A stretch of 64,000 nt of DNA from Candidatus Amesbacteria bacterium RIFCSPLOWO2_01_FULL_48_25 (GCA_001773695.1 MEXN01000007.1:115204-179203), one strand, 5' to 3'; shown: positions 8,379 to 49,169, counted from the stretch's first letter. The notes: a model not told the origin generated them from the letters alone. A program made the numbers and translations.

Positions 8379-8399
8379 TTTTTAATTATAATCTACACT

Positions 8400-11537: not shown

Positions 11538-13388
11538 GTGGATATTTTGAAGAGCCTAAATCCCCAACAACAAAAAGCGGTGGCTTTCAGTGAGGGGCCC
11601 TTGCTTATTTTAGCAGGAGCGGGAAGTGGAAAGACAAAGGTATTGACTCACCGAGTGGCATATCTCGTTCGCAATAAAAACGTGAGACCTGAAAATATTT
11701 TGCTTTTGACGTTTACAAATAAGGCGGCCGGGGAAATGATGAAGAGGATAATGGGCTTGTTGGGGGCGGAATTTAGAGGATATGGTGGGACTTTTCATAG
11801 TTTTTGTGCCAAGATTTTACGAAAATACGCTGGTTGGGCTCGATTGGATCCCAACTTTGTGATTTTTGACGAGGCGGACCAACTAGACACGGTAAAGCAG
11901 GCCATGGTAGCTGTGGGAGTGGATATAAAATCGGTCAGGCCGGGGTCGGTACTGGGAGCTATATCGGGCGCCAAAAACGAACTAATAACTCCGGCCGAAT
12001 ATGCCGGTTTTGCCAGAGGAAACTTTTCCCAAACTGTAGCCCGAGTATATTTGGCTTACCAACAGTTGCTTCGGCGATATAAAGCTTTGGATTTTGATGA
12101 CTTGTTGGTAGAAACAGTCAGGCTGTTGCAAATCGAGCCGGAGGTGAGGGAGAAATTAGAGGAAAATTTCAAGTTTATATTAGTAGACGAATATCAAGAT
12201 ACGAATAAGGCGCAGTATGAAATTACGAAAGTGCTCTCTAAAAAACACGGGAACTTGACTGTTGTCGGAGACGCGGCACAGGCGATTTACTCGTGGCGGG
12301 GGGCAAATTATCGAAACCTATTGTATCTTAAACAAGACTTCCCCACTCTCACGACTCTAAATTTGGAGCAAAACTACCGGTCTACCCAGATAATTTTATC
12401 GGCAGCCAATGAAGTGGTATCTAAAAACAAAAATCATCCTATATTGAACTTGTGGACGGATAGAGGTGGAGGAGAAAAAGTAACTTTTTACGAGGCAGAG
12501 AGTGAGTACGATGAAGCCCAATTTGTCATAGGACAAATTGCAACAACCAAATATTCGGAATTTGCGGTGCTATACCGGACAAATGCGCAGTCGCGGGTGT
12601 TGGAGGAGGCGTTTTTGCATTCAGGGATCCCTTACTCACTGGTTGGGGGGGTGAGATTTTACGAAAGAAAAGAGATAAAGGACGTGATTGCGTATTTGCG
12701 TTTGGTTTTAAACCCCGAGGATGAAATTTCCAGGAAGAGGGCAGAAAAATTGGGAAAGGGCAGACTACAGAAATTTACAAATTCCAATTTACAATTTTCA
12801 AATAAACTTACCTTGGACATTTTGGATGAGGTGTTGAAAATTACGGGATATTTGGAACAATTTGATGAAATGAATGAGGAAGACGCGGCCAGATTGGAAA
12901 ACATAAAAGAGCTGCGAAGCGTGGCGCAGGAATTTCCTAAATTGCCTGAACTTTTAGAACAGATTGCACTAACCGAAAAAGAAGCGTCTAGGAGTCAGCG
13001 TCTAGCGTCTAGCGGAGAAGGGGCTGTAACTCTGATGACACTACACGCGGCGAAGGGGCTGGAGTTTAAACGTGTGTTTATGGTGGGAATGGAGGAAGGG
13101 TTATTCCCCCACTCCAGATCGCTTATGGATCCCGAACAAATGGAGGAGGAACGACGCTTGTGTTATGTGGGGATGACCCGGGCGATGGATAACTTGTATC
13201 TGACTTACGCCCGGAGGAGGTTATATTTCGGGTCGCGATCCAATAATCCGGTGTCTCGGTTTTTGGCGGATATTCCGGAGGAGTTAATCGAAGTTAACCA
13301 AGAGATTAAGAAGGCTAAGAGATTAAGCTTGGAGCAAAATTGGGGTTTTGATGAAGAGGGAAATTGGCAGTGGACGCCAGACGATTAA
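11538..13388 (+). CDS. pcrA: UvrD/PcrA/Rep-family ATP-dependent DNA helicase.
   Basis: Walker A GPLLILAGAGSGKTKVLT, helicase motifs TFH, VDEYQDT, LEQNYRST, and a C-terminal domain. Carries in-frame AT-rich (12771-12810) and AGAGATTAAG (13302-13333) insertions. Confidence 0.85.
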   Translation: MDILKSLNPQQQKAVAFSEGPLLILAGAGSGKTKVLTHRVAYLVRNKNVRPENILLLTFTNKAAGEMMKRIMGLLGAEFRGYGGTFHSFCAKILRKYAGWARLDPNFVIFDEADQLDTVKQAMVAVGVDIKSVRPGSVLGAISGAKNELITPAEYAGFARGNFSQTVARVYLAYQQLLRRYKALDFDDLLVETVRLLQIEPEVREKLEENFKFILVDEYQDTNKAQYEITKVLSKKHGNLTVVGDAAQAIYSWRGANYRNLLYLKQDFPTLTTLNLEQNYRSTQIILSAANEVVSKNKNHPILNLWTDRGGGEKVTFYEAESEYDEAQFVIGQIATTKYSEFAVLYRTNAQSRVLEEAFLHSGIPYSLVGGVRFYERKEIKDVIAYLRLVLNPEDEISRKRAEKLGKGRLQKFTNSNLQFSNKLTLDILDEVLKITGYLEQFDEMNEEDAARLENIKELRSVAQEFPKLPELLEQIALTEKEASRSQRLASSGEGAVTLMTLHAAKGLEFKRVFMVGMEEGLFPHSRSLMDPEQMEEERRLCYVGMTRAMDNLYLTYARRRLYFGSRSNNPVSRFLADIPEELIEVNQEIKKAKRLSLEQNWGFDEEGNWQWTPDD

Positions 13389-13401
13389 GTATAATTGGAA
13401 T

Positions 13402-14295
13402 ATGAATAGCGATGATTGGAACAAAAATGCTGGGCATCCGATGCAATCTTTCGAGTGGGGGGAGTTTAGGGAGAAGGTGGGGAATAAAATATCGAGGGTT
13501 GTCGGTGACAAGCAATATCAGATAATTTGGAGTCGGATTAAGCCTTTTGATTTGTGGTTTGGATATTGCCCGATGTCTGGGATGCCGAATGAGAAAGATA
13601 TTAAGATACTAAGAGATGAAGCGATTAAGAATAATGGGCTCGGGATAAGATTTGAGCCTAATGAGATGAAGGGCGCGAAAATACCGGAAAGGATGGTGTC
13701 GGGAAGACATTTATTTAAGCCCAAGACTTTTCAGATAGATTTGACCTTGGGTGAAGATGAATTATTAAATAGAATGCATCCGAAGTGTAGATATAATATT
13801 CGGCTGGCACAAAAGCACGGAGTAAAAATTGGGGAAGGAGATATAGAAAGTTATGTGAAATTGATATTTGGAAAGACAGTAAAAAGACAAAAAATTTATT
13901 CACACTCGGAAAAATATCATTGGGAATTGGCACAGCTGGGATGGGTTCATTTGTTTAAGGCAGAATATAAAAATAAAGTGATTGCGAGCTGGATGGTTTT
14001 TGCCTGGAAAAATTTTGTTTACTATGCATATGGTGCATTCGATGATGACTACAAAAACTTGATGGCACCTGTTTTGGGTCTTTGGGAAATAATTAGGTGG
14101 GGAAAAAGAGAAGGATTCAAAACTCTGGATTTGTGGGGGGCCGAAGAGGGGCGCGGATTTAGCAGGTTTAAACAGCAGTTCGGACCAGAACTGGTAGAAA
14201 TGGTCGGAACGTATGATTTACCAATTAATTTTTTGCATTGGCCGTTTAGAATGGCGGAGGAAATAAGATGGAAGATCTTGCGGATATTGAAGTAG
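13402..14295 (+). CDS. FemAB/FemX-family aminoacyl-tRNA-dependent peptidyltransferase (peptidoglycan interpeptide bridge).
   Basis: HPKCRYNIRLAQKHGV (FemABX RYNIRKA motif); ~300 aa; start taken at MNSDDW (13402) directly after the pcrA stop. Confidence 0.65.
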   Translation: MNSDDWNKNAGHPMQSFEWGEFREKVGNKISRVVGDKQYQIIWSRIKPFDLWFGYCPMSGMPNEKDIKILRDEAIKNNGLGIRFEPNEMKGAKIPERMVSGRHLFKPKTFQIDLTLGEDELLNRMHPKCRYNIRLAQKHGVKIGEGDIESYVKLIFGKTVKRQKIYSHSEKYHWELAQLGWVHLFKAEYKNKVIASWMVFAWKNFVYYAYGAFDDDYKNLMAPVLGLWEIIRWGKREGFKTLDLWGAEEGRGFSRFKQQFGPELVEMVGTYDLPINFLHWPFRMAEEIRWKILRILK

Positions 14296-15080
14296 AGGAC
14301 GTGAGGCAGAGCATAGAATACGGCCGATATATTGAGAAAATCGGGTGGAGAGTGGAGAGTGGTATTTTTTTACGAAAGTTGGGGCCGGTGACAATTGCGA
14401 AGATACAAAGAAGGGATCTGCCGCCAGGTTGGGAAAAGATTTTAAAAAGAAACCGAGTTGTGATGTGTAAATATGAGCCATTGAGGACGCCTGTTGGGTG
14501 GAGACAGGATAACTGGCCGTTGTTGGGAACAAAGACGTTGAGAGTTGACTTAAGGCCAAGTGAAGAAAAAATATTTAATTCGTTTAAAAAGGACTGCAGA
14601 TACATCGTGCGGAAATTACAAGATACAACCCGCCTGCCGGACGGGCAGGGATACAAGATACAAACAGATGATTTTGAGGGATTTTATGAGATTTGGAGAA
14701 AATCGGCAAAAAGAAAGCATTTATGGATTCCGGGTAAAAAAGAGTTTGATTTTTTGGTTGACAGTTTTGGAGAAAAGTGTTTTTGTGCGACCATAAACGG
14801 TGAAGCCGGGGCGGTTATTTTGACGCATGAGAAAACGGCGTTTTATTATTACGCAGGGGCGACGGAAGAGGGAAACAGAATGAATTTGCCATATTTAGTG
14901 GTGTGGGAGGCTATGAAGGAAGCTAAAAGGCGGGGTATGAAAGTTTGGGATTTTGAAGGAATATACGATTCCAGATGGCCAAACAAAGGATGGTTGGGAT
15001 TTTCCCATTTTAAGAAAAGCTTTGGGGGAGTGGAAGTGGAATACCCGGGGTGTTTTACTAGATGGCAGGTACCGTTTTAG
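14268..15080 (+). CDS. Second FemAB/FemX-family peptidyltransferase (tandem paralog).
   Basis: FKKDCRYIVRKLQD motif and the same domain layout as the upstream gene; 28-nt overlap with it. Confidence 0.65.
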   Translation: MEDLADIEVEDVRQSIEYGRYIEKIGWRVESGIFLRKLGPVTIAKIQRRDLPPGWEKILKRNRVVMCKYEPLRTPVGWRQDNWPLLGTKTLRVDLRPSEEKIFNSFKKDCRYIVRKLQDTTRLPDGQGYKIQTDDFEGFYEIWRKSAKRKHLWIPGKKEFDFLVDSFGEKCFCATINGEAGAVILTHEKTAFYYYAGATEEGNRMNLPYLVVWEAMKEAKRRGMKVWDFEGIYDSRWPNKGWLGFSHFKKSFGGVEVEYPGCFTRWQVPF

Positions 15081-27500: not shown

Positions 27501-28193
27501 TTAATAGCTTTCGACAAAACGGGTGCTGTCTAGGTAAATAAGTTTTGGGCTGTTTATGACCTCTATCATTTCATCGAAGGTGGCGAAGACATTTTCCAAA
27601 GCCCGGTATTGTTTCTCGGTCATCCAGATGTTTTCACCTTCTGGAATTTTTTCTTTCAGTTTTCCCTTTGTGTTTTCTATTTTATAGACCCAAAAATATT
27701 TGTCTTCGAGCAACTGGCCATTTTTGTGAAAGTGGTGGTAGTGGACGATGCCCTTGTGAATGAAATCCCCCGTTAGACCCGTTTCTTCGAGAAATTCTCG
27801 ATGGGCACAATCCAGGGGGGTTTCTCCCCAGCGGATTTTGCCGGAATGGGAGCCGTACCAACCATAAAACGGTTCTTTCAGCCGGCGGTGGACAAGATAT
27901 TCGGTAATCCCGTTTTTGGGCCTGACGGCGTGGAGAGCGACAGCCAACTTGGCCTGGCGTTCGAGCTTCAGCGAGTCGGTGTCCATACGGTTGGCAAATT
28001 CTTTGCCCTGGGGGGTGAGGGAATACTTGCCCGCGGATTTGGTAATCAGGCCTTCCTGAATGAGCCGGTTGACGTGGAAAGTGAAGTGGTCGTTGGTGAC
28101 GTCAACGGTTTTGAGATCCCTAAATCTGGCATTGGGCTTGAATAATAATTCACGCAGGATCGAGATCTGAAAGTCGTGAATTTTGAGTTCCAT
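27501..28193 (-). CDS. Winged-helix (MarR-like) DNA-binding domain fused to a NUDIX hydrolase domain.
   Basis: N-terminal ISILRELLFKPNARFRDL wHTH region; Nudix box GKIRWGETPLDCAHREFLEETGL. Confidence 0.65.
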   Translation of the reverse strand: MELKIHDFQISILRELLFKPNARFRDLKTVDVTNDHFTFHVNRLIQEGLITKSAGKYSLTPQGKEFANRMDTDSLKLERQAKLAVALHAVRPKNGITEYLVHRRLKEPFYGWYGSHSGKIRWGETPLDCAHREFLEETGLTGDFIHKGIVHYHHFHKNGQLLEDKYFWVYKIENTKGKLKEKIPEGENIWMTEKQYRALENVFATFDEMIEVINSPKLIYLDSTRFVESY

Positions 28194-28260
28194 GGGGCGT
28201 ATTATTTGCTGAAGAGGGGTGATTGTCTAGTAAAGCCGGCTTTACCAATGTTTCCGAGGA

Positions 28261-28821
28261 TTAAATGGGTTGCCAGATAAAGTAGGAGGTTTTGTCGTCT
28301 TGGACTTCAACGTAGCCTTCAGGACGAAAATGGTATGGGGAAAGTCGGGTTTCGTAAATATAAACCTTATATTTGGACCAAAGCCCGGGATAGGATGTGG
28401 AGAGGATTTGCTCACGATCTTCGACGCCAGTGTTGAACAAGGCTACTCCAATGATGCCCAATTCTTCTTTCAAGGTTCTTATCGCGGCTTCGTCGGGTAA
28501 TTCGCCGGGTCGCATCTTTTCACCGATAGAGGTTGACAGACTCCGTCTTCTCTCCCTGCCGTCAGAGAACACTTGTTTTTCCTCGACTAGTTTTAAAACA
28601 CCTTGTCCCTGGCTAAAAAATACGTTTATCCCTACTCCCTTAACACTCCGTAGAACTTTTTTTCCCGAATCTTCTATTTTGACCTCTCCTGATCTTATTT
28701 CGGTCAGCAGGTGCGCTAACGTTTTGCTTTCTCCGGTTCCCCACTCTTCGTACGGAATTTTTCGGGAGTTAAGGAATTCCTTGAGTTCGTTTAAATTCAT
28801 CTGACGTATCTTATCACTCAA
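28261..28821 (-). CDS. NUDIX-fold hydrolase (divergent).
   Basis: GEKMRPGELPDEAAIRTLKEELGI fits GX5EX7REUXEEXGU. Confidence 0.5.
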   Translation of the reverse strand: MSDKIRQMNLNELKEFLNSRKIPYEEWGTGESKTLAHLLTEIRSGEVKIEDSGKKVLRSVKGVGINVFFSQGQGVLKLVEEKQVFSDGRERRRSLSTSIGEKMRPGELPDEAAIRTLKEELGIIGVALFNTGVEDREQILSTSYPGLWSKYKVYIYETRLSPYHFRPEGYVEVQDDKTSYFIWQPI

Positions 28822-28840: not shown

Positions 28841-29533
28841 GTGATAGACTCACATTGTCATTTGTATGAGATTCCGGAGGAGGAATGGGTAGATAACGGA
28901 TTGGAGGCGATGGTTTGCGCGGGGGCGGATGTGGAGACGAGTGAAAAAGCAATTGAGTTGGCGGAAAAGCACCCTAATGTGTATGCCACTGCGGGGATAC
29001 ATCCGGAGGGAATGGGGAAGTTAAGGGATCTCTCGGCGTTGCTCGAGATGACAAAAAAACCGAAAGTTGTGGCGGTGGGGGAATGCGGGTTAGATACAGG
29101 AAGTGAAGCCGAGATTGAATTATTTAAATTTAATATAAATTTGGCGAAGGAGACGGGGTTGCCGGTGGTTGTGCATTGCCGGAATATGTTTGATAGGGTG
29201 TTTGAGGTTTTGAATTACGATAAAGTGCAGATGCATTGTTTTACTGGAAATGAGGAGGAGATGCGGGAGTGTGTGAGGAGGGGGTGGTATATAAGTTTTG
29301 GGGGGATATTAACATTTAAAAAAAGTGAGTATTCGAGAGAGGTGGCAAGATTAGTTCCGGAGGATAAGTTATTGATCGAGACCGACTCGCCATATTTAGC
29401 GCCGGAACCAGTAAGAGGGACTAGAAACACCCCAGTTAATGTAAAATATGTCTTAGACTGCCTGACAAAAGTAAGAGGGACTAGAGTGGAGCAGATAACC
29501 TCTGAAAACGCCAGAAGACTGTTTGGGTTATGA
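28841..29533 (+). CDS. tatD: TatD-family metal-dependent DNase/hydrolase.
   Basis: MIDSHCHL N-terminus, EIGLD-like GECGLD, internal His/Asp residues; 230 aa. Confidence 0.85.
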   Translation: MIDSHCHLYEIPEEEWVDNGLEAMVCAGADVETSEKAIELAEKHPNVYATAGIHPEGMGKLRDLSALLEMTKKPKVVAVGECGLDTGSEAEIELFKFNINLAKETGLPVVVHCRNMFDRVFEVLNYDKVQMHCFTGNEEEMRECVRRGWYISFGGILTFKKSEYSREVARLVPEDKLLIETDSPYLAPEPVRGTRNTPVNVKYVLDCLTKVRGTRVEQITSENARRLFGL

Positions 29534-30999
29534 CAAGAAGACAACGGAGGTTTTTAGAAATATTGCCGGGGTTTGTGAGTTGGAATGTGATTTTGTTTTT
29601 AATTTGGGGTGGTTATTTCATTCCGGTTGTGACGGCCTATTTTATATTGGCTTTTGATGTGTACTGGGTATACAAATCGCTGACCGTGACGGTAGCGGCA
29701 ATCTTATCCCACTTTAAAATGCAGGCGGCTGAGCACCTGGACTGGATGCGGGAAGTCCGGGGGTTTGGGGACTGGGAAAAAGTGAGACATGTGGTTATTG
29801 TCCTGGTTGCTAATGAACCACCGGAGACTTACTCGCGGACACTGGAGGCTTTGTCGAAACAAATGTTTCCATTGAAGCAAGTGGCGGTGGTCATGGCAAC
29901 CGAAGAAAGATTTCCTCAAGCTGCGCTGCAATGCGAGGCATGGCGAGAAAGAATGGGCAAATTGTTTGGGGCATACCTGGTGACTGTCCATCCGGCTAAT
30001 ATCCTCGGAGAAATTAAGGGCAAGTCGTCGAACGAGGCGTGGGGGGCTAAAGAAGCCAAGAGGATCTTGGTTGATGAAATGAAATGGGATATGGAGTTTA
30101 TGACAGCGACATCAAATGACTCAGATGCTATATTGCACACTCAGTATTTGGCTTGTTTGGCGTTTAAGTTTCTGGATGATCCTAATAGATATGAAAAATT
30201 CTGGCAACCGGCTATTGTGTTTTACAATAACATTTGGAGGTTGCCGGCCGTAACCCGAGTGGTAAATACATTGGGAACGTTGTTTCAAATTGCGGTTCTG
30301 ATGAGAAAAGACAAACTTATTAGCTTTTCTAATTATTCTCTTTCTTTCCGGTTGTTAGTGGAGGTGGGATACTGGGATACAGACGTGATTCCGGAAGACT
30401 ACCGGATTTTTTTCAAAGCTTTTTTTGCCAAAGAAGGGCGAGTGGAGGTGGAACCTATTTTTTTACCATCATCGGCGGACGCGGCTGAGTCGACGTCGAC
30501 TTGGAAAACTTTTTTGAACGACTATCAACAAAAAAAGAGGTGGGCGTGGGGAGTGTCCGATATCCCGACTTTCGTCGAGATGTACACCAAATACCGAGGA
30601 GGGTGGGAATTTAACAAGATATTGCGTTTGTGGCGAGTGTTTGAAGATCATTTGTTGTGGCCGGTCAACTGGTTTGTAATCACCGCCGGAATTACGATTG
30701 TCTCCTTGATCAACCCCGAATTTACCCGGACGACTCTTGGCTATTCGTTGCCCAAATTGTCATCGGCTATTTTGTCGGTGACAGTGTTGTTTTTGATTAT
30801 CTTACTTATCATTGACATGAGAAGGAGACCGCCGCGACCAGAGCATATGCCTAAATGGAGGGCGTGGTTAACGCCTCTAGAGTTTGTACTGATGCCTGTG
30901 GTTGGTTTTTTCTTTAATGCACTTCCTGGCTTGGACGCGCACACAAGGTTGATGTTGGGGAAGTATCTTGAATATAAGATCACAGAAAAGGTAAAGTAG
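29530..30999 (+). CDS. Membrane-embedded GT2 glycosyltransferase, processive synthase type (CesA/NodC/HAS-like).
   Basis: TM helices at both ends. ED (EDYRIF) and QQKKRWAWG match the Q(Q/R)xRW motif of processive beta-glycosyltransferases. Confidence 0.6.
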   Translation: MTRRQRRFLEILPGFVSWNVILFLIWGGYFIPVVTAYFILAFDVYWVYKSLTVTVAAILSHFKMQAAEHLDWMREVRGFGDWEKVRHVVIVLVANEPPETYSRTLEALSKQMFPLKQVAVVMATEERFPQAALQCEAWRERMGKLFGAYLVTVHPANILGEIKGKSSNEAWGAKEAKRILVDEMKWDMEFMTATSNDSDAILHTQYLACLAFKFLDDPNRYEKFWQPAIVFYNNIWRLPAVTRVVNTLGTLFQIAVLMRKDKLISFSNYSLSFRLLVEVGYWDTDVIPEDYRIFFKAFFAKEGRVEVEPIFLPSSADAAESTSTWKTFLNDYQQKKRWAWGVSDIPTFVEMYTKYRGGWEFNKILRLWRVFEDHLLWPVNWFVITAGITIVSLINPEFTRTTLGYSLPKLSSAILSVTVLFLIILLIIDMRRRPPRPEHMPKWRAWLTPLEFVLMPVVGFFFNALPGLDAHTRLMLGKYLEYKITEKVK

Positions 31000-31004
31000 A
31001 TATT

Positions 31005-32498
31005 ATGTGGGCGAGGTGGGAGAAATGGCTAAGAGGTCGGGAATGGCTGGTGTTGATCCTGATTGGAGTGGTGGTCATTAGGATTCCCACGTTGTTTGAG
31101 CCGTACTGGTATGGGGACGAGGGTATATATTTGACGGTCGGACAGGCGATGCGCCAGGGAGTCAAATTGTACAGACAAATTCACGACAACAAACCGCCAC
31201 TTTTATATTTGGTGTCAGCGCTTGCTGGAGGAAGTTTATTTTGGTTCAGGTTTCTGGCCGGTGCGTGGAATGTGGCGACGGTGGTGGTGTTCGCCGGGAC
31301 GTTTGATATCATATTCGGCAAGGAGAATCGCTCGTGGAAATATGGGGCAATAATCACCTTCGGTCTAATTACTAACTTGCCGCTATTGGAGGGAAATATT
31401 GCTAACGCCGAAAACTTTTTCTTATTACCGGTGTTGGCAGCGTTTGCTATATTGGGGAAAGAAAGGATCACTAGTGCTGGGATTTGGTGGGCGGGTATAC
31501 TAATCGGATTAGGTGCGCTGTTTAAGGTTCCGGCCTTGCTAGAAGCCGGGGTATGGCCGATTTATTGGCTAATTGAAACTTTAAACAAGAAACTAGGTTG
31601 GGGTGATTGGTGGAAACGGTGTATTATCCTTGGCCTGGCCGCTTTGTTGCCATTGATACTGACTGTGGGATATTATCAATTCACAGGATCTGGGACAAAT
31701 TACCTATCCGCAATTGTCGGACAAAATATTTCATATCTGTCCACCTGGAAAGAAGGTGGGGCAGGGGGTGGTATCTTTGGAGTGAAAGGGAGAGCAGCCG
31801 TGGCTGTAGTGCTGATTGCAGGAATTGTGGTTGTAAATAAGAGACTTAAAAAACAGGCAATAATTGTGGGAACGTGGTGGATAGTAACTCTGTTTGCGGC
31901 TTTGTTGTCCGGACGGCCATATCCCCATTATTTATTGCAAATGGCGGGAGTACTTACTTGCGGGGCAGTGATACTGGCAAGTGGAAAAAGATGGGAGAGG
32001 GGTTTGGTCGCGATCCTCATCGTGGTGTTTGCCGGGGCTATCACTTTTTTCCGGTTTTGGGTTTACCCGGTAGCGGGATATTACCTAAATTTTGCCAAGT
32101 GGGTAATTGGACGACAGACCAAGCAGGAATACTTCGCCTGGTTTGGGCCCGGGGTGTTGCGAAATTATAGAATTTCTGGAATTATCGCAGCGGGAAGTAA
32201 GCCTTCCGATAGGATCTTTGTGTGGGGCGACGAACCGATGATATATGCGCTGACGCGAAGGCTGCCGGCGACAAAATACATGGCCAAATACCATGTGGAA
32301 AGTTTTGCCGCCCAAGACCGGACGATTGAAGAGGTGGAGAGCAATAATCCACGATATATAGTGACTTTTTCTGACATGCGTGAGCTACCAGGGTTGGCTC
32401 AACTAATCTTGAGTAAGTACCTATTGGAGGAAAAAGTAGATGATGTTCGAATTTATCGGCAAATGGTGGGTTTGACGTATATACCCATCATGAGGTAG
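31005..32498 (+). CDS. GT-C glycosyltransferase, GT39/GT83 (ArnT/PMT-like).
   Basis: First loop FEPYWYGDEGIY...HDNKPPLLYL (DE motif and KPPL motif of ArnT/PMT); 497 aa polytopic. Confidence 0.65.
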   Translation: MWARWEKWLRGREWLVLILIGVVVIRIPTLFEPYWYGDEGIYLTVGQAMRQGVKLYRQIHDNKPPLLYLVSALAGGSLFWFRFLAGAWNVATVVVFAGTFDIIFGKENRSWKYGAIITFGLITNLPLLEGNIANAENFFLLPVLAAFAILGKERITSAGIWWAGILIGLGALFKVPALLEAGVWPIYWLIETLNKKLGWGDWWKRCIILGLAALLPLILTVGYYQFTGSGTNYLSAIVGQNISYLSTWKEGGAGGGIFGVKGRAAVAVVLIAGIVVVNKRLKKQAIIVGTWWIVTLFAALLSGRPYPHYLLQMAGVLTCGAVILASGKRWERGLVAILIVVFAGAITFFRFWVYPVAGYYLNFAKWVIGRQTKQEYFAWFGPGVLRNYRISGIIAAGSKPSDRIFVWGDEPMIYALTRRLPATKYMAKYHVESFAAQDRTIEEVESNNPRYIVTFSDMRELPGLAQLILSKYLLEEKVDDVRIYRQMVGLTYIPIMR

Positions 32499-32582
32499 TT
32501 CTTGTGCGTATTAACGCGTTTCGATGGGTATATATCCGTCATAATCGCTGCAAATTCGCAGCATGACAGCTATAATTAGGAA

Positions 32583-32906
32583 GTGGAAAGGGTTTTAAAA
32601 CGGCTAGGGTTATTTAATTTTTTAGTGATGGCGGCGGGGGTAATGGCCGGGTCCGGGGTTTTGATCATCTATGCCAAAAGACTGCCTCCCCAGGTGCCGT
32701 TATGGTACAGCCGGTCGTGGGGAGAAGAGCAGTTGGCAAGTCCGGCGATGCTTTGGGTGTTGGTAGCGTTGATTCTAGTAACCGGAATTGGGGCTGGAAT
32801 CGGGGGGAGAAAGGGAGTGTTGGGAGCAATGGTTTTGGCTGGGGGAATAGTAATCCAGGTGATGCTAATGTTGGCACTACTTAGAATTGTCATGTTGGTG
32901 GTATAA
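32583..32906 (+). CDS. Small membrane protein (3-4 TM; GtrA-like?) of the glycosylation cluster.
   Basis: 107 aa hydrophobic. Confidence 0.3.
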   Translation: MERVLKRLGLFNFLVMAAGVMAGSGVLIIYAKRLPPQVPLWYSRSWGEEQLASPAMLWVLVALILVTGIGAGIGGRKGVLGAMVLAGGIVIQVMLMLALLRIVMLVV

Positions 32907-33983
32907 ATGGAATATCTAATTGGTCCGTTTTTGGTCTCGGCTGGTATCTCGGTCGCGGTGAGTTGGTTGGTAATCAGGTGGGGTCGGGCCATGGGAATAA
33001 TTGACGACCCCAAAAAGCACATCCACCCCAAGGTAGTACATGAAACGCCTGTGCCCCGTGGGGGAGGGTTGCCAATCCTGGCAGCCTGGTTGATATCTGC
33101 GGCACTATTTCTTCCGTGGGAAAAGAAAATTGTCGGAATTGGGTTGGGGGTAATACTTTTGGGAATAATCGGGTTTGTCGATGACAAATTTGAGGAAAAG
33201 GTGTCCCCTCACTTTCGATTAGTTATCAATGTGTTGGCGGCTCTTATGGTAATCGGGGGTGGGGTGGGGATTGCATTTATAACTAGCCCTGGGGGGGGAA
33301 TTTGGGATCTAAGCTCTCCCAGATGGTGCTGGGGGGACCACTGCCTGTGGCTGTTGTCTGATTTATTCGCTTTGGTTTGGCTGGTGTGGACGCAAAACAT
33401 AGTCGGATGGAGCAGCGGGGTGGACGGGCAATTGCCGGGCTTTGTAATTGTGGCGGCGGGGGTGATGGCGGCAATGGGATTGAGATTTGGCACTGATATT
33501 AATCAACAACTTATAATAGTGATGGCGGCAATTGTGGCGGGGGCTTATGCGGGGTTTTTACTTTGGAACTGGTACCCACAGAAGATAATGCCAGGATACG
33601 GGGGAAAGAGCCTGGCTGGTTTTTTATTGGGAGTGTTGGCTATTTTTTCGGGAGCAAAAGTGGGAGCAATGATAATGGTACTTTGCATTCCTTTTATCGA
33701 TGGAGCGGCGGTAATTGTGAAACGGCTGGCCGAGCACCGCAGCCCGGTGTGGGGCGGGAGGGAACACCTGCATCATTACTTGTTGGACAAGGGATGGGGC
33801 AAGAGGCGAATAGCGGTTTTTTATTGGCTGATGTCATTGGTTTTTGGGGTGGGAGCGTTGCAATTGAATAGCCAGTCCAAGTACTTTACAATGGCGACAG
33901 CAGGACTTCTCATCGGGGGGGTCATTTTATGGTTTCACTATTTTTCAACATCCTCAAAACGGCAAGGCCCAGACAATGGGTAA
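32907..33983 (+). CDS. Polyprenyl-phosphate N-acetylhexosamine-1-phosphate transferase family (WecA/TagO/MraY superfamily).
   Basis: IIDDPKKHIHPKVVHETPVPRGGGL matches the DDxxD…H…P.PxxGG cytoplasmic-loop signature of MraY/WecA; 10-11 TM helices. Confidence 0.7.
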   Translation: MEYLIGPFLVSAGISVAVSWLVIRWGRAMGIIDDPKKHIHPKVVHETPVPRGGGLPILAAWLISAALFLPWEKKIVGIGLGVILLGIIGFVDDKFEEKVSPHFRLVINVLAALMVIGGGVGIAFITSPGGGIWDLSSPRWCWGDHCLWLLSDLFALVWLVWTQNIVGWSSGVDGQLPGFVIVAAGVMAAMGLRFGTDINQQLIIVMAAIVAGAYAGFLLWNWYPQKIMPGYGGKSLAGFLLGVLAIFSGAKVGAMIMVLCIPFIDGAAVIVKRLAEHRSPVWGGREHLHHYLLDKGWGKRRIAVFYWLMSLVFGVGALQLNSQSKYFTMATAGLLIGGVILWFHYFSTSSKRQGPDNG

Positions 33984-34870
33984 AAAACCTGACATTGTTT
34001 GCGGCACTTATTTTGACCGGGTATATTTATTCGTCCCAGTTGTGGTGGAGAGATTTTTGGATAGTGGCAGAAGCGGTGGTGATTTTTACACTGGTAGCGT
34101 CGGCTGTTTATTTTTGGAACGATATAATTGACATCAAGGCCGATCAGGCGCATCCGTTTAAGAAAAAAAGGCCGATTGCTTCTGGTAAGATCTATCTCCC
34201 TCTGGCGGTTGTCTTGTTTGGCTTGGGGTCAGTCGTGGGCTTAGGATGGGCATGGAAATTGTCGGGGCTGTTTTTTGGAGTAGTATTTGGGTATTGGGGA
34301 CTACAAATACTATATTCGGTATGGCTGAAAAACATCGAGGTGGTAGATGTGTTTGTGATTGCTATGGGGTTTTTTTTGAGAGTGCTGGCGGGATCGATTG
34401 TGATAAACGCCCACTTGTCTATCTGGTTTCTGTTGTGCGTAATTTCTACATCACTTTTTCTAGCGGTAGGGAAAAGGCGGGCAGAAATGGCAATTTTGAC
34501 TGAACAGGCGGCGTTGCACCGAAAAGTGATGAGTAAATATTCGGCCAGTATTCTGGACTCTTATTTGACCATGTTTGCCACAGCGGCGTTTTTGTCATGG
34601 TCGTTGTTTACCTTCAATTTTTACGAGCAAGGGGGGTTGCAGTTTACACCGACGAGCCTGGTCCTTACCTCTCGGACATTGACTATAAACAAATGGTTGA
34701 TGGCGACTATACCTGTCGTAATTTTTGGCATCATGCGGTACATCAGAATAATCTACGACGGGTCGAGGGCTGAAACTCCGGAGAGAGTAATTTTGTCAGA
34801 TGTGACACTACTTTCTACGGTTGCGGTGTGGGGAGTGTTGGTGATGATAACTCTTTACGGAATTGGTTAA
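33929..34870 (+). CDS. UbiA-family prenyltransferase, decaprenyl-phosphate phosphoribosyltransferase-like.
   Basis: ARPRQWVKNL...FWNDIIDIKADQAHPFKKKRPIASGKI (NDxxDxxxD plus a second Asp-rich motif). Confidence 0.7.
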   Translation: MVSLFFNILKTARPRQWVKNLTLFAALILTGYIYSSQLWWRDFWIVAEAVVIFTLVASAVYFWNDIIDIKADQAHPFKKKRPIASGKIYLPLAVVLFGLGSVVGLGWAWKLSGLFFGVVFGYWGLQILYSVWLKNIEVVDVFVIAMGFFLRVLAGSIVINAHLSIWFLLCVISTSLFLAVGKRRAEMAILTEQAALHRKVMSKYSASILDSYLTMFATAAFLSWSLFTFNFYEQGGLQFTPTSLVLTSRTLTINKWLMATIPVVIFGIMRYIRIIYDGSRAETPERVILSDVTLLSTVAVWGVLVMITLYGIG

Positions 34871-35124
34871 TCTTTGGAGAATTGGCTTTCCAACTGCTTA
34901 ATTCTTTTGAGCCGAAAAAAATTGGTGATGCCCATATAAAGGGTGTAAGCGGGGCCAAGAATAAGTAGGATCGTTATTAATAAACGGTGCCAAGGCGGGG
35001 AAAAGAAAAGATTAACGAATAAAACCATTAATAGGCAAGCCAGATTGATGGCGCAGGCTTCGACGGCATAGATGATTTTGTCGAGACGCAATGCCTGGGG
35101 ATCATCATTCGTACTTTTGAGCAT
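34867..35124 (-). CDS. Small two-TM membrane protein, hypothetical.
   Basis: 85 aa hydrophobic ORF overlapping neighbours by 4 and 20 nt. Confidence 0.3.
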   Translation of the reverse strand: MLKSTNDDPQALRLDKIIYAVEACAINLACLLMVLFVNLFFSPPWHRLLITILLILGPAYTLYMGITNFFRLKRIKQLESQFSKD

Positions 35125-35974
35125 ATTGCGACGAGACCCAGCCTTGCCCGACGGCAGGCAGGCCAGAACTGGTTGACGGCAGGTCTACCTTAATAAGATA
35201 CCACCCAGAATCGGATTTGAGGAGGGGGTAGGTGGCGGCAGGTTTGACCTGACCAAGTTCAGAACTTGTGGTTTTTGGCTCGGAACGGACACGTAAAAAG
35301 CCGGTAGGCGTATCCAAAATGCGCACATAGGGGCGGGCGAGAGTGGCAGAAGGGGTAGCTGGCGAAGCGGTGGGAAGAGGAGTGGGAAGAGGAGCGGGTG
35401 AACCCGATAGCTTGACCGTGAGAGCTAAGCGGTAGCTAGCGACGGCTTGGGCCGTAATTTGGCGATCTGTAAACCCAGGAGCAGAGAGGGTAATGTTGTG
35501 ATCTCCGGGAGTAACCGGAGAAATAAGCAGTGGGGTAAACCCTTGGGGTTGGCCATCGATGGTGACAGAGGCGGAGTCTGGGTAACTGGTAACAATACTG
35601 AGGCTGGCTTCAGACCCACTTTCGCCAAGTAGACTAGTGATGTCTCCGGCCGAAGTGTCGTCCGTTTCGCCAAACTCGCGGTGGATGACAGTGTAGGTAT
35701 CTGGAGTAAGGCGGATTTTGGCTTGATACGGCGAAACGTTGGCCAAAGTGTCAGGGATGATTTTGACGGTCACTTCGCCTGGGGGGAAAAGTTTTTCCAA
35801 TGGGGTGCGGCCGACTTGGGCATTGTCGATAAAAACAAGCGCTGGGGGAGTGGAGAAGACTTTGAGGCCGGCGGTGGGAGTACGGGAACGAATAAATGCG
35901 AAAACGCTGAAACCGACACCGATAATTAGGCCGGCGGCGATGAGGATTAGGCCGATAAGTTTGGTTTTAGGCAC
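35105..35974 (-). CDS. Membrane-anchored protein with two PEGA domains, a Pro/Thr linker and a C-terminal SH3b-like domain.
   Basis: N-terminal TM; PEGA-like segments (...VGRTPLEKLFPPGEVTV..., ...DGQPQGFTPLLISPVTPGDHNITL...); C-terminal ...GWYLIKV...GWVSS. Confidence 0.55.
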   Translation of the reverse strand: MPKTKLIGLILIAAGLIIGVGFSVFAFIRSRTPTAGLKVFSTPPALVFIDNAQVGRTPLEKLFPPGEVTVKIIPDTLANVSPYQAKIRLTPDTYTVIHREFGETDDTSAGDITSLLGESGSEASLSIVTSYPDSASVTIDGQPQGFTPLLISPVTPGDHNITLSAPGFTDRQITAQAVASYRLALTVKLSGSPAPLPTPLPTASPATPSATLARPYVRILDTPTGFLRVRSEPKTTSSELGQVKPAATYPLLKSDSGWYLIKVDLPSTSSGLPAVGQGWVSSQYAQKYE

Positions 35975-39680: not shown

Positions 39681-40127
39681 ATGACAAATCAAGTTAAGCA
39701 CTTTTATGTGGGAGTAAAGGGGTTAATAATTAGGTATGACGGGAAGATATTGCTTCTGAAACCAAAAAGGGACATGCACCCGTTTTTCATAGGTGATTGG
39801 GATATACCGGGAGGGCGAATCTTGAGTCATAGCGAGGGGGAACATAGAATCAGGTCAAAGATAAAGGAAGAGACAGGACTGGAAGATATTTATTCCATAA
39901 AGCCTTTTGGAAGTGGAATAATTCAAGATGCGGAGTTTGCGGAAGAGGGGCAAGTGGTGGGGTTAGTATTGATGGTATACATTTGCCGACTGGGGAATAA
40001 GGACCAAAAGATTAACTTGGACGAAGGCCACTCGGAGTATAAATGGTGCAGTCCTGGAGAAGCGGCGGCAAATCTGTATCAATTTCCCAACGACTTTCGA
40101 GAAAGGCTTGAAGAGATGAGGTTTTAG
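39681..40127 (+). CDS. NUDIX hydrolase.
   Basis: Nudix box GGRILSHSEGEHRIRSKIKEETGL. Confidence 0.7.
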   Translation: MTNQVKHFYVGVKGLIIRYDGKILLLKPKRDMHPFFIGDWDIPGGRILSHSEGEHRIRSKIKEETGLEDIYSIKPFGSGIIQDAEFAEEGQVVGLVLMVYICRLGNKDQKINLDEGHSEYKWCSPGEAAANLYQFPNDFRERLEEMRF

Positions 40128-42009: not shown

Positions 42010-42591
42010 CTACAATGTCAAATTTGAGTCCGGTTTCGACACTCTAAAGATGTGGGGTTTGGCCAGAAGCAGGCTTATTAGAGTCAGGGCGGATGGAAGT
42101 TGCTGGTTGACTAATAAATTATACGCTTGATCGAATGGTAAGGTTTTGATTTCCAATCGCTCGACGGGGTCGTTGGGTAGAGAGTGGGGTTTCAGGTCCG
42201 TGGCCAGCACAACATAGTAATTGCTATCTATATGGATAGTAGGTGTAAATTTGGCCAAGATCACTAGTTTGTCAGCTTTCATTCCGATCTCTTCCTGGAG
42301 TTCACGATTGGCGTTGTCCAATACTTGCTTATCAGATGGATGTTCGGCTTCGACGCCCCCGGCGGGAAGTTCCCAAACATAATCTTTCCTGGTCGGGCGC
42401 CATTGACGGACACAATATACAGAGTTGTCGTCTGTAAGGGCGATGATACCAACCACATCGCGCGATCTAACATACTGCCAGACAGCAGTCTTACCACCCG
42501 GAAGTTTGACTGTGGCGTCTACGAGCTGGTGTTTGTGGTTTGTGGGGGAAGTGATAACCGATTCTGAAATTATTTTATAACCGGTAGGCAT
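42010..42591 (-). CDS. NUDIX hydrolase (ADP-ribose pyrophosphatase-like).
   Basis: ELPAGGVEAEHPSDKQVLDNANRELQEEIGM Nudix box. Confidence 0.7.
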   Translation of the reverse strand: MPTGYKIISESVITSPTNHKHQLVDATVKLPGGKTAVWQYVRSRDVVGIIALTDDNSVYCVRQWRPTRKDYVWELPAGGVEAEHPSDKQVLDNANRELQEEIGMKADKLVILAKFTPTIHIDSNYYVVLATDLKPHSLPNDPVERLEIKTLPFDQAYNLLVNQQLPSALTLISLLLAKPHIFRVSKPDSNLTL

Positions 42592-44578: not shown

Positions 44579-44618
44579 TTGCTAGCAATATATACCAGAC
44601 AGCCTAAATTCTTGTCAA
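44579..44618 (-). promoter_or_regulatory. groES promoter: TTGACA-N18-TATATA (minus strand), followed by the 10-bp palindrome TTGCTAGCAA in the 13-nt leader.
   Basis: Complement of 44613-44618 is TTGACA; 44589-44594 is TATATA; the palindrome spans 44579-44588. No CIRCE-like TTAGCACTC-N9-GAGTGCTAA found. Confidence 0.45.
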
Positions 44619-45059
44619 GAGGGAAGATAGTTCGGTCAAAAATTTAGCTTGGGCGGGATGAATTTTGACTTGGGCGATGGAGAGAGAAAACCACTCGCCC
44701 CTGTCGACTTCGGGGTAAGATTTACCAAAGAGGACAAAAGTGTTGCTCTTGAGCTGGGTGGGGTCGAGATTACCTTCCACGGACCAGGCATAAATAACTT
44801 TGCCGCTTTGGATCTTGACTGGAGATAGAGGTACAAAATCGCCGGAGATGATAGCGCCGGTTTCTTCAAAAAATTCTCTTTTGGCAGTCTGAAGCTGATC
44901 TTCGCCGGGGCTAAACTCTCCTTTGGGAATGGACCAGACTCCCATGTTCTTTTTGGCCCAGAACGGGCCGCCGGGATGGACGAGAAAAATTTGCAGGTCG
45001 GGCTGGTGACGAAAAAGCAAGATGCCAGCGCTATTTTTTCTGAGGGTGGAAGAAGGCAT
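44604..45059 (-). CDS. NUDIX hydrolase (HPGGPFWAKKxxGxWSIPKGE subfamily).
   Basis: LLFRHQPDLQIFLVHPGGPFWAKKNMGVWSIPKGEFSPGEDQLQTAKREFFEETG. Confidence 0.7.
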   Translation of the reverse strand: MPSSTLRKNSAGILLFRHQPDLQIFLVHPGGPFWAKKNMGVWSIPKGEFSPGEDQLQTAKREFFEETGAIISGDFVPLSPVKIQSGKVIYAWSVEGNLDPTQLKSNTFVLFGKSYPEVDRGEWFSLSIAQVKIHPAQAKFLTELSSLLTRI

Positions 45060-47426: not shown

Positions 47427-49169
47427 ATGGGTTTGACTAAAATTAAGTTTTTGATTGCAGCTACAGTAGTTTTGGGAGTGTTTTTGGGCCTGATGTTAGA
47501 GGGAGTTTATTGGGGGCGGGTAGCATGGGGGGTGAGAGTGGGAAGAGTAGAGGTGGGAGGAATGAAAACCGAGGAGGCAAGAGCTAAAATCTTAAACCAG
47601 TTGCGTGTCTCACAAATTGAGGTGGTCTGGGGAACGACAAAAACCGTCATCCCGGCAAATAGAATTGGTCTCTTGTACGAGCCGGATCGTTCTTGGCAAA
47701 AAGCGGTGAGTCTGGGTCATGATAAAGGAATTTTGGTTAATTGGAGCACCAGAGGGCGGGCACTTCGATGGGGGATGGTAGTCGATCCGGTTTTTACCTT
47801 GGATGAGAATCGCCTGGCGGGAGAGATTGCCAGTATCGCCTCATATATCAATATTCCGGCGGTGGAGCCAGAAATTCAGATAGAGACTTTTGGAAAAACC
47901 AAAAGAGTGAATGTGAGTCTGGGGGAAAACGGGCAAGAAGTGGACGAGCAAAAATTGATTTCCCGAGTCCGGGCGGTTGTTGCCGCTGGAGATAATGAGG
48001 AAATAGAAATACCTATTGTACGAATTACGCCAAAATTGTCAGACGATGAAGCTAAAACGGTTTTAACCCGGGCTGAGAAAATCGTCGATAGGATGGTTGA
48101 AGTAAAGTTTGACGAGCTGGCGTTGAAGTGGGATATCGGCGATGAAGAACTAACCAAGTGGATAGACGCAGGGGGCGGATGGAAGAGACCGCTTATAGAA
48201 CTTTGGGGGCAACAGTTGGCCCAGAATGTGGATCGACCGGCACAAAACGCTCAATTACATTTTGTCAGGCCCGGCAGGGTAGAGGAATTTAAGCCCGGCC
48301 GGGATGGGTATCGGGTGGATCAATTGGGGCTGACTGCCAATATCGAGGCGGCCTTAACTCGGCTTCTTTCTGGCAGCCCAAAAGAGGTGGTGGACTTGCC
48401 GGTGGAGAGGACAGCTCCAGAAGTCAAAACCGGGGACGCCAACAATTTGGGGATAAAAGAGCTAATCGGCCGGGGAGAATCGTGGTTCGTAGGATCGATT
48501 ACCAACAGAATTTATAACCTGCAAAAGGCGGCCGCCGAAATAAACGGGGTATTGGTAGCGCCGGGGGAAACGTTTTCATTTAACCAGACTGTGGGAGATA
48601 TATCGTCGGCGACTGGGTACAGACAAGCTTACATCATTAAAGAAGGTAGAACTATATTGGGAGACGGAGGCGGAGTGTGCCAGGTGTCCTCTACTCTATT
48701 TCGAGCAGTCCTTTCGGCCGGACTACCAATTGAGGCGCGAACGGCCCATGCTTTCCGGGTGTCTTATTACGAAGTCAAATACCAACCAGGGTTTGACGCC
48801 ACAGTATTTCAACCGGAACCGGACTTTAAATTCAGAAACGATACGCAGGGGCATATCTTGATCCAGACGGTATATGATGAGAAGACTAAATATCTGGCAT
48901 TTGAAATATACGGCACGTCTGACGGCAGGAAAGTGGAGATTTCCAAAGCCAGGATTTGGGATGTGGTGGCACCGCCTCCGGACTTGTACCAGGATGATCC
49001 AACCTTGGCAGTGGGAGTGGTCAGGGAAGTTGAGCACAAGGCGTGGGGGGCTAAGGTGGCTTTTGATTGGAAAGTGACTCGGGGGGAGGAAATGTTGCAG
49101 GAGCGAACCTTCTATTCCAACTACCGCCCCTGGCAGGCCGTGTTTTTGCGAGGAACGAAGACTAATTAA
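47427..49169 (+). CDS. VanW-family protein (N-terminal TM, C-terminal VanW domain).
   Basis: ...GYRQAYIIKEGRTILGDGGGVCQVSSTLFRAV...PGFDATVF... VanW domain core; 580 aa. Confidence 0.8.
   Translation: MGLTKIKFLIAATVVLGVFLGLMLEGVYWGRVAWGVRVGRVEVGGMKTEEARAKILNQLRVSQIEVVWGTTKTVIPANRIGLLYEPDRSWQKAVSLGHDKGILVNWSTRGRALRWGMVVDPVFTLDENRLAGEIASIASYINIPAVEPEIQIETFGKTKRVNVSLGENGQEVDEQKLISRVRAVVAAGDNEEIEIPIVRITPKLSDDEAKTVLTRAEKIVDRMVEVKFDELALKWDIGDEELTKWIDAGGGWKRPLIELWGQQLAQNVDRPAQNAQLHFVRPGRVEEFKPGRDGYRVDQLGLTANIEAALTRLLSGSPKEVVDLPVERTAPEVKTGDANNLGIKELIGRGESWFVGSITNRIYNLQKAAAEINGVLVAPGETFSFNQTVGDISSATGYRQAYIIKEGRTILGDGGGVCQVSSTLFRAVLSAGLPIEARTAHAFRVSYYEVKYQPGFDATVFQPEPDFKFRNDTQGHILIQTVYDEKTKYLAFEIYGTSDGRKVEISKARIWDVVAPPPDLYQDDPTLAVGVVREVEHKAWGAKVAFDWKVTRGEEMLQERTFYSNYRPWQAVFLRGTKTN

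Follow-up and report, generated by a model that had tools for sequence, protein, structure and literature searches.

A conserved Microgenomates operon that may build an envelope glycan from a lipid-linked pentofuranose

The DNA analysed here is a stretch of 64,000 nucleotides (the window) from Candidatus Amesbacteria bacterium RIFCSPLOWO2_01_FULL_48_25 (GCA_001773695.1 MEXN01000007.1:115204-179203). Its subject is a group of five closely packed open reading frames (ORFs) on the same strand, genes A to E, at 29530-34870. An initial annotation, made from the sequence alone, had described this region as a compact envelope-glycan cluster with a processive glycosyltransferase of family GT2, an ArnT-like glycosyltransferase of the GT-C fold, a WecA/MraY-type initiating transferase and a UbiA phosphoribosyl-prenyltransferase. 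ORF calling and a motif check found all of its ORFs and motifs in place, and the coordinates of A, B, D and E agree with it. Gene C was absent from that list, and the C-D-E core described below had likewise gone unnoticed. The operon and its immediate neighbours are as follows.

28841-29533, plus strand: upstream tatD, a TatD-family hydrolase (PF01026 on an identical public contig)
29530-30999, plus strand: gene A, a membrane-integrated synthase-type GT2 of 489 aa, predicted to be a processive polysaccharide synthase
31005-32498, plus strand: gene B, a glycosyltransferase of 497 aa with a predicted ArnT-like GT-C fold
32583-32906, plus strand: gene C, a small membrane protein of 107 aa with three transmembrane helices (hydropathy and family hidden Markov model, HMM)
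32907-33983, plus strand: gene D, a divergent phosphotransferase of the MraY/WecA/GPT superfamily, 358 aa (Pfam), a predicted initiating transferase
33929-34870, plus strand: gene E, by homology a UbiA-fold, Rv3806c-like putative polyprenyl-phosphate 5-phosphoribosyltransferase (PPPRS), 313 aa
34867-35124, minus strand: ORF F, 85 aa with two transmembrane helices, convergent with E (gene call on public contigs)
35105-35974, minus strand: gene G, a membrane-anchored surface protein with PEGA and SH3 domains, convergent with E (Pfam)

The tatD gene overlaps A by 4 nt; gaps of 5 nt (A/B), 84 nt (B/C) and 0 nt (C/D) follow, and D and E overlap by 55 nt. The UbiA gene had been described as directly adjacent to the GT-C genes; in fact C and D stand between B and E. 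Downstream of E, a tRNA-Cys gene lies beyond the two convergent genes F and G. A scan of 27.3-36.3 kb for promoters and terminators gave nothing informative. The same DNA is present on many groundwater and sediment metagenome contigs, and the remaining window holds the gene set of a small genome of the candidate phyla radiation (CPR), including dnaA, yidC, GroEL, tRNA synthetases, many NUDIX genes and FemAB.

Gene E matched the Pfam family UbiA (65.9 bits, cutoff 34.2; 4.3e-18) and carries the motif NDIIDIKAD at residues 64-72 (34118-34144), which aligns with N73-D81 of Rv3806c from Mycobacterium tuberculosis. Its top four NCBIfam models, at 215, 192.7, 147 and 144 bits, are three models of decaprenyl-phosphate phosphoribosyltransferase and the HAD-UbiA model PRK08238, while the heme o synthase, UbiA-like and EboC models reached 19-32 bits and no heme or quinone model exceeded 45 bits. 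In a search of all PDB sequences at E<=0.01, M. tuberculosis Rv3806c (8j8j, 9.1e-35) was the sole match, and the structures of MenA, UbiA and UBIAD1 gave none. No extra domain and no fused HAD phosphatase was found in E by Pfam or NCBIfam. The protein is 100% identical to one from Candidatus Amesbacteria bacterium RIFCSPHIGHO2_01_FULL_48_32.

The residues of Rv3806c that contact phosphoribosyl pyrophosphate (PRPP) and polyprenyl phosphate, as listed in PMC10994848, were mapped onto E through a HMMER alignment, and 12 of the 13 are identical. The pyrophosphate cluster R22, K87, R90, K143, Y138 and K208 of Rv3806c corresponds to R13, K78, R81, K134, Y129 and K199 of E. The Mg and ribose contacts N73, D77 and Q135 correspond to N64, D68 and Q126, and the contacts to the 5-phosphate and the lipid phosphate, K28, Y70 and K191, to K19, Y61 and K182. 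The thirteenth residue, Y157, is replaced by Phe (F148) in E, as it also is in some mycobacteria. Across 14 E orthologues the contact residues are mostly invariant. Since ordinary UbiA prenyltransferases do not conserve the phosphoribose contacts of Rv3806c (PMC10994848), we regard this identity as specific evidence.

Because of the NCBIfam ranking, the single PDB match and the conserved contact residues, we treat E as very probably a PPPRS. The initial annotation had named as a check whether E groups with Rv3806c or with quinone and heme enzymes, and the models place it with the former (215 and 193 bits, against about 30 for heme o and UbiA-like). The other outcome, an ordinary UbiA-type aromatic prenyltransferase acting on quinone, heme o or a similar compound in a cluster unrelated to pentose, could appeal to a Pfam match that is only to the generic UbiA family and to the public names of E orthologues, several of which read “4-hydroxybenzoate polyprenyltransferase” (some are annotated by PGAP as decaprenyl-phosphoribose (DPPR) synthase, e.g., P0201). 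The model scores, the PDB search and the retained phosphoribose-specific residues all run counter to this outcome, which we consider hardly credible.

Gene D matched Pfam Glycos_transf_4 (PF00953; 69.4 bits, cutoff 27; 4.8e-19). The NCBIfam models MraY_archaea, WecA and MraY gave 51-53 bits against cutoffs of 192-450 (MraY TIGR00445 50.9 versus 192, WecA TIGR02380 52.9 versus 326, both below cutoff), and a profile of 17 D sequences matched MraY (63 bits, 1.6e-16) and human GPT (33 bits, 2e-7) in the PDB. The protein contains the motifs DDPKK (residues 33-37), PVPRGGGL (48-55), DDKFE (92-96) and HLHH (287-290), and the catalytic residues of the polyprenyl-phosphate N-acetylhexosamine-1-phosphate transferase (PNPT) superfamily, D92, D93, G174, D265, H287, H289 and H290, are invariant. 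By eye, its N-terminal pattern D-D-P-x-x-x-x-H-x-x-x-x-x-x-x-P-V-P-R-G-G-G-L is closer to WecA/TagO than to MraY. The low scores with the MraY and WecA models, together with the invariant catalytic residues, support membership of the superfamily only, and D is, as judged from its sequence, a divergent PNPT and not an orthologue of MraY or WecA. The label “WecA/MraY-type” therefore holds at the superfamily level, by Pfam and the catalytic residues, and not at the level of either ortholog family, whose cutoffs are not reached. D is predicted to be an initiating transferase. The possibility that it is the MraY of this organism was rejected on the model scores.

Gene C lies directly upstream of D. 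Kyte-Doolittle hydropathy predicts three transmembrane helices, with a conserved segment “RLPPEVPLFYSLPWGEEQLAPK” behind the first, and an alternative ATG start at 32628 would give a protein of 92 aa. Iterative HMM searches found a member of the C family directly upstream of D in 81 of the 81 loci whose sequence extends over this position (80 of 80 when a duplicate locus is dropped). Among 1.84 billion cluster representatives, 314 relatives were found, each 74-150 aa long, with no fusions to other domains. Gene C is genuine and conserved. Its only family resemblance is a sub-threshold one to DUF1648. Assignment to a GtrA-, SMR- or PAP2-type protein was rejected for lack of any such match, and a match to a holin was spurious.

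Gene B gave no sequence match in Pfam, NCBIfam or the PDB, also when searched as a profile of 31 sequences. The AlphaFold2 model computed from this 31-sequence alignment reached a predicted local distance difference test score (pLDDT) of 93 and a predicted TM-score of 0.91, and the highest-ranking matches of a Foldseek search of the PDB were all GT-C enzymes, led by ArnT (5ezm; E 4.3e-6, TM-score 0.56), then STT3, DPY19, PglB and PMT, with AftD (6wby, E 0.01) in rank 14. B contains the motifs GDE (residues 37-39) and KPPL (63-66), and its first loop is conserved as YGDE...DNKPP, with Y36, G37, D38, E39, D61, N62, K63, P64 and P65 invariant. It also carries a C-terminal soluble alpha/beta domain. 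On a grouping with protein O-mannosyltransferases, which the initial annotation had named as a refuting outcome, the signals are mixed: two B orthologues pass the cutoff of 26.1 bits for the PMT_2 model (P0007 with 34.4 and P0038 with 36.9 bits), and the orthologue P0003 and B itself fall below it. On the basis of the model, B is a GT-C of the ArnT/PMT structural class, not demonstrably in any CAZy family and not Emb/Aft-like, and it is predicted to use a polyprenyl-phosphate-linked sugar donor outside the membrane. Of the earlier designation “GT39/83 (ArnT-like)”, the ArnT-like GT-C_A fold and the acidic DE motif of the first extracytoplasmic loop were borne out, and a Pfam-level sequence match for B was not obtained. 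The comparison with Emb/Aft-type enzymes found no such backing: neither B nor the other GT-C-like proteins of the window matched an Emb/Aft family of Pfam or NCBIfam.

Gene A matched Pfam Glyco_trans_2_3 (45.7 bits, cutoff 27; 8.7e-12). It bears the motifs DSD (residues 197-199), PEDYR (288-292) and QQKKRW (333-338; 30526-30543), in which D197, D199, E289, D290, Q334, K335, R337 and W338 are invariant, and its predicted topology consists of two N-terminal and about three C-terminal transmembrane helices. Searches of the PDB by sequence and by profile gave no meaningful match, and the NCBIfam PgaC model scored 19.6 bits against a cutoff of 422. The predicted fold of A matched the Chlorella virus hyaluronan synthase (HAS; 7sp7, E 2.7e-8, TM-score 0.45), BcsA, Xenopus HAS1 and chitin synthase. 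Motifs and modelled fold support a processive synthase-type GT2, in agreement with what had been proposed from the QQKKRW motif.

Related genomes show that this arrangement is widely conserved in one part of the CPR. Patterns derived from E were used to scan GTDB with one genome per species, and a relative was found in 313 genomes. Loci were counted in the best 80 of the 313 by calling ORFs and applying iterated HMMs, with the loci that cover the position as denominators. All of the best 80 belong to Patescibacteria of the Microgenomates type (Ames-, Blackburn-, Shapiro-, Collier-, Woese-, Davies- and Pacebacteria).

C next to D: 80 of 80 loci
D next to E: 78-80 of 80 loci
B directly upstream of C: 61 of 71 loci
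A within 10 kb upstream of C-D-E: 59 of 66 loci
complete A-B-C-D-E: 52 of 66 loci
B-C-D-E with A absent: 5 loci
A-C-D-E with B absent: 7 loci
C-D-E alone: 2 loci (L080 and L050), with neither A nor B in the upstream sequence covered

About 80 species-level genomes share this gene order, with E as low as 42% identical, and the arrangement is far beyond chance. C-D-E is the invariant core, and A and B are frequent partners, each of them separately dispensable. The overlap of D and E is kept in relatives, with 55 nt in L007 and 34 nt in L008. Many of the GTDB records that carry the operon in this synteny go under the title “uncultured Gammaproteobacteria/Pseudomonadales bacterium” (third-party annotation, TPA) and one “Clostridia bacterium”; these names (L018, L021-L023, L028, L030-L033, L039-L043, L050, L054-L058 and others) are apparently wrong.

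Two features of this distribution point to functional coupling. The first is that no locus examined has C-D-E interrupted, not even L080 and L050. The second is that in Candidatus Woesebacteria B-C-D-E is embedded in a larger glycan locus (L057 1051-17013), with a Pribosyltran-domain protein, a GT2 of PF00535, a methyltransferase and a YfhO-like GT-C upstream, and a further GT2, a PMT_2 GT-C and an SDR epimerase/dehydratase downstream. The same distribution might be read as that of separate pathways, which remain neighbours by inherited macro-synteny, with A as a stand-alone exopolysaccharide synthase, D as the housekeeping initiator of a wall polymer, B using a polyprenyl-phosphate-hexose donor and the product of E consumed elsewhere. 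Such a reading would draw on the order UvrD/RmuC - methionyl-tRNA synthetase (MetRS) - GroES/GroEL, which is kept across these lineages, and on the loci that dispense with A or with B. Synthase-type GT2s such as BcsA and HAS normally need no lipid-linked primer, which also counts in its favor. We nevertheless hold it to be rather improbable, because it does not account for C-D-E being contiguous in all 80 loci, even in the two without A or B in the upstream sequence covered, or for the conserved D/E overlap. Moreover, the five proteins are all membrane enzymes of polyprenyl-phosphate or glycan chemistry, amid flanking housekeeping genes of unrelated function.

In one lineage (L080 6494-10939), C-D-E stands without A and B beside a divergent gene of the MurJ family. 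This gene was considered as a flippase in L080 and set aside, since a rearrangement of the same macro-synteny is the simpler explanation.

Taken together, we lean towards the view that A to E form a conserved Microgenomates envelope-glycan operon, in which E makes a lipid-linked pentofuranose that a GT-C enzyme uses outside the membrane. The earlier view of an envelope-glycan cluster supplied by a lipid-linked pentose donor is reasonable in this light, as a GT-C, a synthase-type GT2 and an enzyme of the WecA/MraY superfamily are co-operonic with E and deeply conserved. In the proposed pathway, E would act at the cytoplasmic face of the membrane, where sequence comparison strongly suggests the conversion of PRPP and polyprenyl phosphate to polyprenyl-phosphate-beta-D-ribofuranose-5-phosphate. 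The 5-phosphate would be removed by a phosphatase encoded outside the operon, and the lipid-linked pentofuranose would then be flipped outward. As C is the only membrane component of the operon without an assigned role, it is a candidate for the flippase or an accessory subunit, which is a speculative assignment. From fold and synteny, B, and possibly other GT-Cs too, would transfer the pentofuranose to an acceptor at the outer face. For this acceptor, a glycan that D starts on polyprenyl phosphate, a polymer made and exported by A, or a combination of the two is plausible, and the LCP ligase of the window (10483-11535) might later fix the glycan to peptidoglycan.

Several observations weigh against this pathway. 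E scores below the curated equivalog cutoffs of the models that it matches best (NF008977 215 versus 234, NF008978 192.7 versus 207). The AlphaFold2 model of A is of moderate confidence only (pLDDT 65.7), because its usable homologues are all at least 61% identical. C has no match to any flippase family, and the GtrA, SMR and MATE flippase families are not represented among the window ORFs or in the 10 kb upstream of the window. Neither a PAP2 or family-recognised HAD 5-phosphatase nor an epimerase was found in the operon, the window or these 10 kb. B is not the obligatory consumer of the product of E, since 7 loci keep A-C-D-E without B. Finally, the UvrD/RmuC to GroES/GroEL neighbourhood is itself syntenic across these lineages, and with the whole MetRS-GroEL region conserved in this way, a part of the linkage may be inherited order.

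Two more distant genes were noticed in the search for the missing steps. The only MATE-related protein of the MOP superfamily is MurJ, encoded about 5 kb upstream of the window start (L091 4689-6365), with PilN/PilO-like genes and a GH39 glycosidase as neighbours. Near the start of the window lies the following gene.

527-1087, plus strand: a HAD-like protein of 186 aa, with the motifs LDFDGVV, LITAR and YYVEDNLD by eye

This gene is 28 kb from the operon and overlaps by 4 nt the start of a GT4-family glycosyltransferase gene (1084-2169). Its product has no match in Pfam, NCBIfam or the PDB and could be a sugar-phosphate or phosphoribose phosphatase. TatD was also considered as the missing 5-phosphatase and rejected, since its gene goes with MetRS and many loci with A to E lack it.

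The identity of the sugar is a further question. In a pathway of the mycobacterial type, the product of E would be epimerised to polyprenyl-phosphate-arabinofuranose, and the GT-Cs would build from it an arabinan-like wall polymer, with D and a GT2 providing the primer. The enzyme classes match those of the M. tuberculosis aftB-ubiA-Rv3807c-glfT2 region, with WecA and an LCP ligase in addition. E is Rv3806c-like, several GT-C-like proteins and an LCP ligase are encoded inside the same 64 kb, and some relatives have an SDR epimerase/dehydratase gene a few kilobases from the cluster. The initial annotation had likewise pointed to the actinobacterial step to decaprenyl-phospho-arabinose, for which the locus offers no enzyme: no candidate for DprE1 (flavin adenine dinucleotide/ALO type) or DprE2 (SDR) was found in the 64-kb window or the 10 kb upstream, and no ORF13-type epimerase was recognisable in the window ORFs or the same 10 kb. 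In addition, B and the other GT-Cs lack an Emb/Aft family match, and A resembles hyaluronan and cellulose synthases, not GlfT2. An arabinan pathway thus seems improbable to us. In the absence of a DprE1/DprE2-type epimerase from the window and the 10 kb upstream, the transferred sugar would more simply be ribofuranose than arabinofuranose.

A second cluster of glycosylation genes near the start of the window had been cited in support of a pentose polymer.

5167-6813, minus strand: a PMT/PMT_2-like GT-C (Pfam PMT_2 28 bits, PMT 27.4 bits)
6798-8378, minus strand: a protein with nine transmembrane helices and no family match
8232-10490, plus strand: a DUF2298/chlor_Arch_YYY membrane protein of 752 aa (DUF2298 1.8e-94; TIGR03662 476.8 bits)
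10483-11535, minus strand: an LCP glycopolymer-peptidoglycan ligase (LytR_cpsA_psr 1.7e-28; TIGR00350 87 bits)

The gene content of this cluster was much as described, and the specific support for a pentose polymer was not found. When the profile of B was compared by hhalign with other large membrane proteins of the window, it matched the product of 5167-6813 weakly (E 5.7e-4) and those of 6798-8378 and 3559-5148 not at all, so that apart from one weak match the membrane proteins of the cluster show no detectable relation to B. The protein of about 700 aa that had been called AftD-like is the 752-aa DUF2298/chlor_Arch_YYY protein, with 476.8 bits to TIGR03662, and not AftD. What the cluster does show is investment of the organism in glycosylation outside the cytoplasm; it has no specific bearing on a pentose polymer.

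The acceptor might alternatively be a protein. Gene G has the Pfam domains PEGA (1.6e-16) and SH3_3 (7e-7) joined by a Pro/Thr/Ser-rich linker, SGSPAPLPTPLPTASPATPSAT, and 51 of 76 loci have it 3' of E in convergent orientation. The linker looks like a possible site of O-glycosylation; G is a possible glycosylation target or a cell-surface partner. In a TfpW-like system, B would put the pentofuranose on Ser/Thr of a surface protein, such as the PEGA/SH3 protein G, pilins or an S-layer. The frequent convergent position of G, the PMT/ArnT-type DE motif of B, the B orthologues that pass PMT_2 and the PilN/PilO genes nearby upstream are all in line with such a function, and a PPPRS feeding pilin glycosylation has precedent (cited in PMC11127046). 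Protein glycosylation would, however, leave the invariant linkage of E with D and the frequent linkage with A unexplained, and one locus in three has no PEGA gene. We regard it as an unlikely account of the operon.

A more specific idea concerns the core. C-D-E could be a new lipid-carrier module, spread across Microgenomates, that physically couples phosphoribosyl-lipid and N-acetylhexosamine-phosphate-lipid chemistries, with C serving in assembly or as a polyprenyl-phosphate-sugar flippase of a new type. If this were true, the module might make a linkage unit containing ribofuranose or ribose-5-phosphate, for instance, or a secondary wall polymer of these ultra-small bacteria. We give this idea a small chance only.

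The upstream tatD is probably co-transcribed with A to E and probably functionally outside the system. It lies 3' of MetRS in most loci; those of the Blackburn/Shapirobacteria type lack it and have A immediately behind MetRS. Membership of ORF F is doubtful; among the loci scanned, a homologue was seen only in L010, and the ORF occurs in close relatives only.

Further genes of the window were noted in passing. The two ORFs 2159-2608 and 2602-2817 (plus strand) encode an FkbM/TRM5-like methyltransferase in two parts, N-terminal and C-terminal, and may be a frameshifted or split gene; they adjoin the GT4 gene and a second methyltransferase gene (2814-3566). At least five NUDIX-hydrolase genes lie in about 17 kb around the operon (27501-28821, 39681-40127, 42010-42591 and 44604-45059), two of them immediately upstream of tatD. 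Other wall-related genes are two tandem FemAB-family peptidyltransferases (13348-15080, plus strand) and a VanW/PG_binding_4 protein (47427-49169, plus strand). A Wzy_C protein, similar to O-antigen ligases and polymerases, is encoded at 58579-59802 (minus strand) beside a DUF4012 protein.

The CPR envelope mediates attachment to the host, and its chemistry is almost unknown. If our preferred pathway is right, the operon predicts that Microgenomates (at least 80 species here) spend PRPP on a lipid-linked pentofuranose donor and that their envelopes contain ribofuranose or arabinofuranose. To our knowledge, pentofuranose surface glycans of this route are so far found mainly in mycobacteria, a few Gram-negative O antigens and Pseudomonas pilins. 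C and the divergent PNPT D, as strictly co-inherited partners, may supply the missing flippase or primer functions, and the three-component pentofuranose paradigm would be extended to a new architecture. Two elements were known before: some E orthologues are automatically annotated as DPPR synthase, and systems pairing a PPPRS with a GT-C are described as widespread (PMC11127046).

A full-text literature search for such a system in CPR/Patescibacteria (DPPR synthase, DprE1, UbiA, arabinofuranosyl) found nothing relevant. Among the closest systems of other bacteria is the three-component pentofuranose system of Citrobacter youngae O1/O2, which consists of the PPPRS-PRP protein ORF15, the MATE flippase ORF14 and the GT-C/GT136 enzyme ORF12 (Kelly et al. 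2024, PMC11127046). Both loci combine a UbiA-fold PPPRS, putative in the case of E, with a GT-C, conserve the N-D-x-x-D-x-x-x-D loop and the R/E loop residues, and would make a lipid-linked pentofuranose inside for use outside. They differ in that E has no fused HAD phosphoribose-phosphatase and that the Amesbacteria operon lacks an epimerase and any flippase of the MATE, SMR or GtrA type. In their place this operon has the invariant three-helix protein C, an invariant PNPT whose gene overlaps that of the PPPRS, and a HAS-like GT2; its host is a Gram-positive-type CPR bacterium, not a producer of O antigen.

The mycobacterial decaprenyl-phospho-arabinose pathway (Rv3806c, Rv3807c, DprE1/DprE2, Rv3789, Emb/Aft, WecA, GlfT2 and Lcp1) contains the closest solved relative of E, Rv3806c, and shares the partner classes GT2, GT-C and PNPT, with an LCP ligase elsewhere in the Amesbacteria window. 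It is set apart by DprE1/DprE2 and PAP2 proteins, which have no counterpart in the window or the 10 kb upstream, by its Emb/Aft enzymes, which the Amesbacteria GT-Cs are not, and by GlfT2, which A, a membrane-embedded synthase, does not resemble. In Pseudomonas aeruginosa, the GT-C TfpW adds D-arabinofuranose to pilin, and homologues of Rv3806c, DprE1 and DprE2 are found in the cluster (cited in PMC11127046). There too a PPPRS homologue supplies a GT-C outside Actinobacteria, and a possible protein acceptor is encoded alongside, but the epimerase genes that define the Pseudomonas system are not present at the Amesbacteria operon and pilin genes are not adjacent to it.

The GtrB/CsbB-GtcA/GtrA-YfhO/GtrC systems, which modify O antigens and teichoic acids with hexoses, follow the same general order: a polyprenyl-phosphate-sugar donor is synthesised in the cytoplasm, crosses the membrane by flipping, and serves a GT-C on the other side. 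Their donor synthase is a GT2 that depends on a UDP-sugar, whereas the Amesbacteria one would be a PRPP-dependent enzyme of the UbiA fold, and no GtrA-family flippase accompanies it. The processive GT2 synthases (HAS, BcsA, chitin synthase and PgaC/IcaA) supply the best fold matches of A, which has their topology of transmembrane helices on either side of a GT-A domain and carries their D, DxD, ED and Q-x-x-R-W motifs; A is about 11-14% identical to any of them and has no family-level sequence match. With its overlap of PNPT and PPPRS genes, its invariant three-helix protein, its HAS-like GT2 and its lack of a recognisable flippase, phosphatase or epimerase, the architecture of this operon differs from all described systems.

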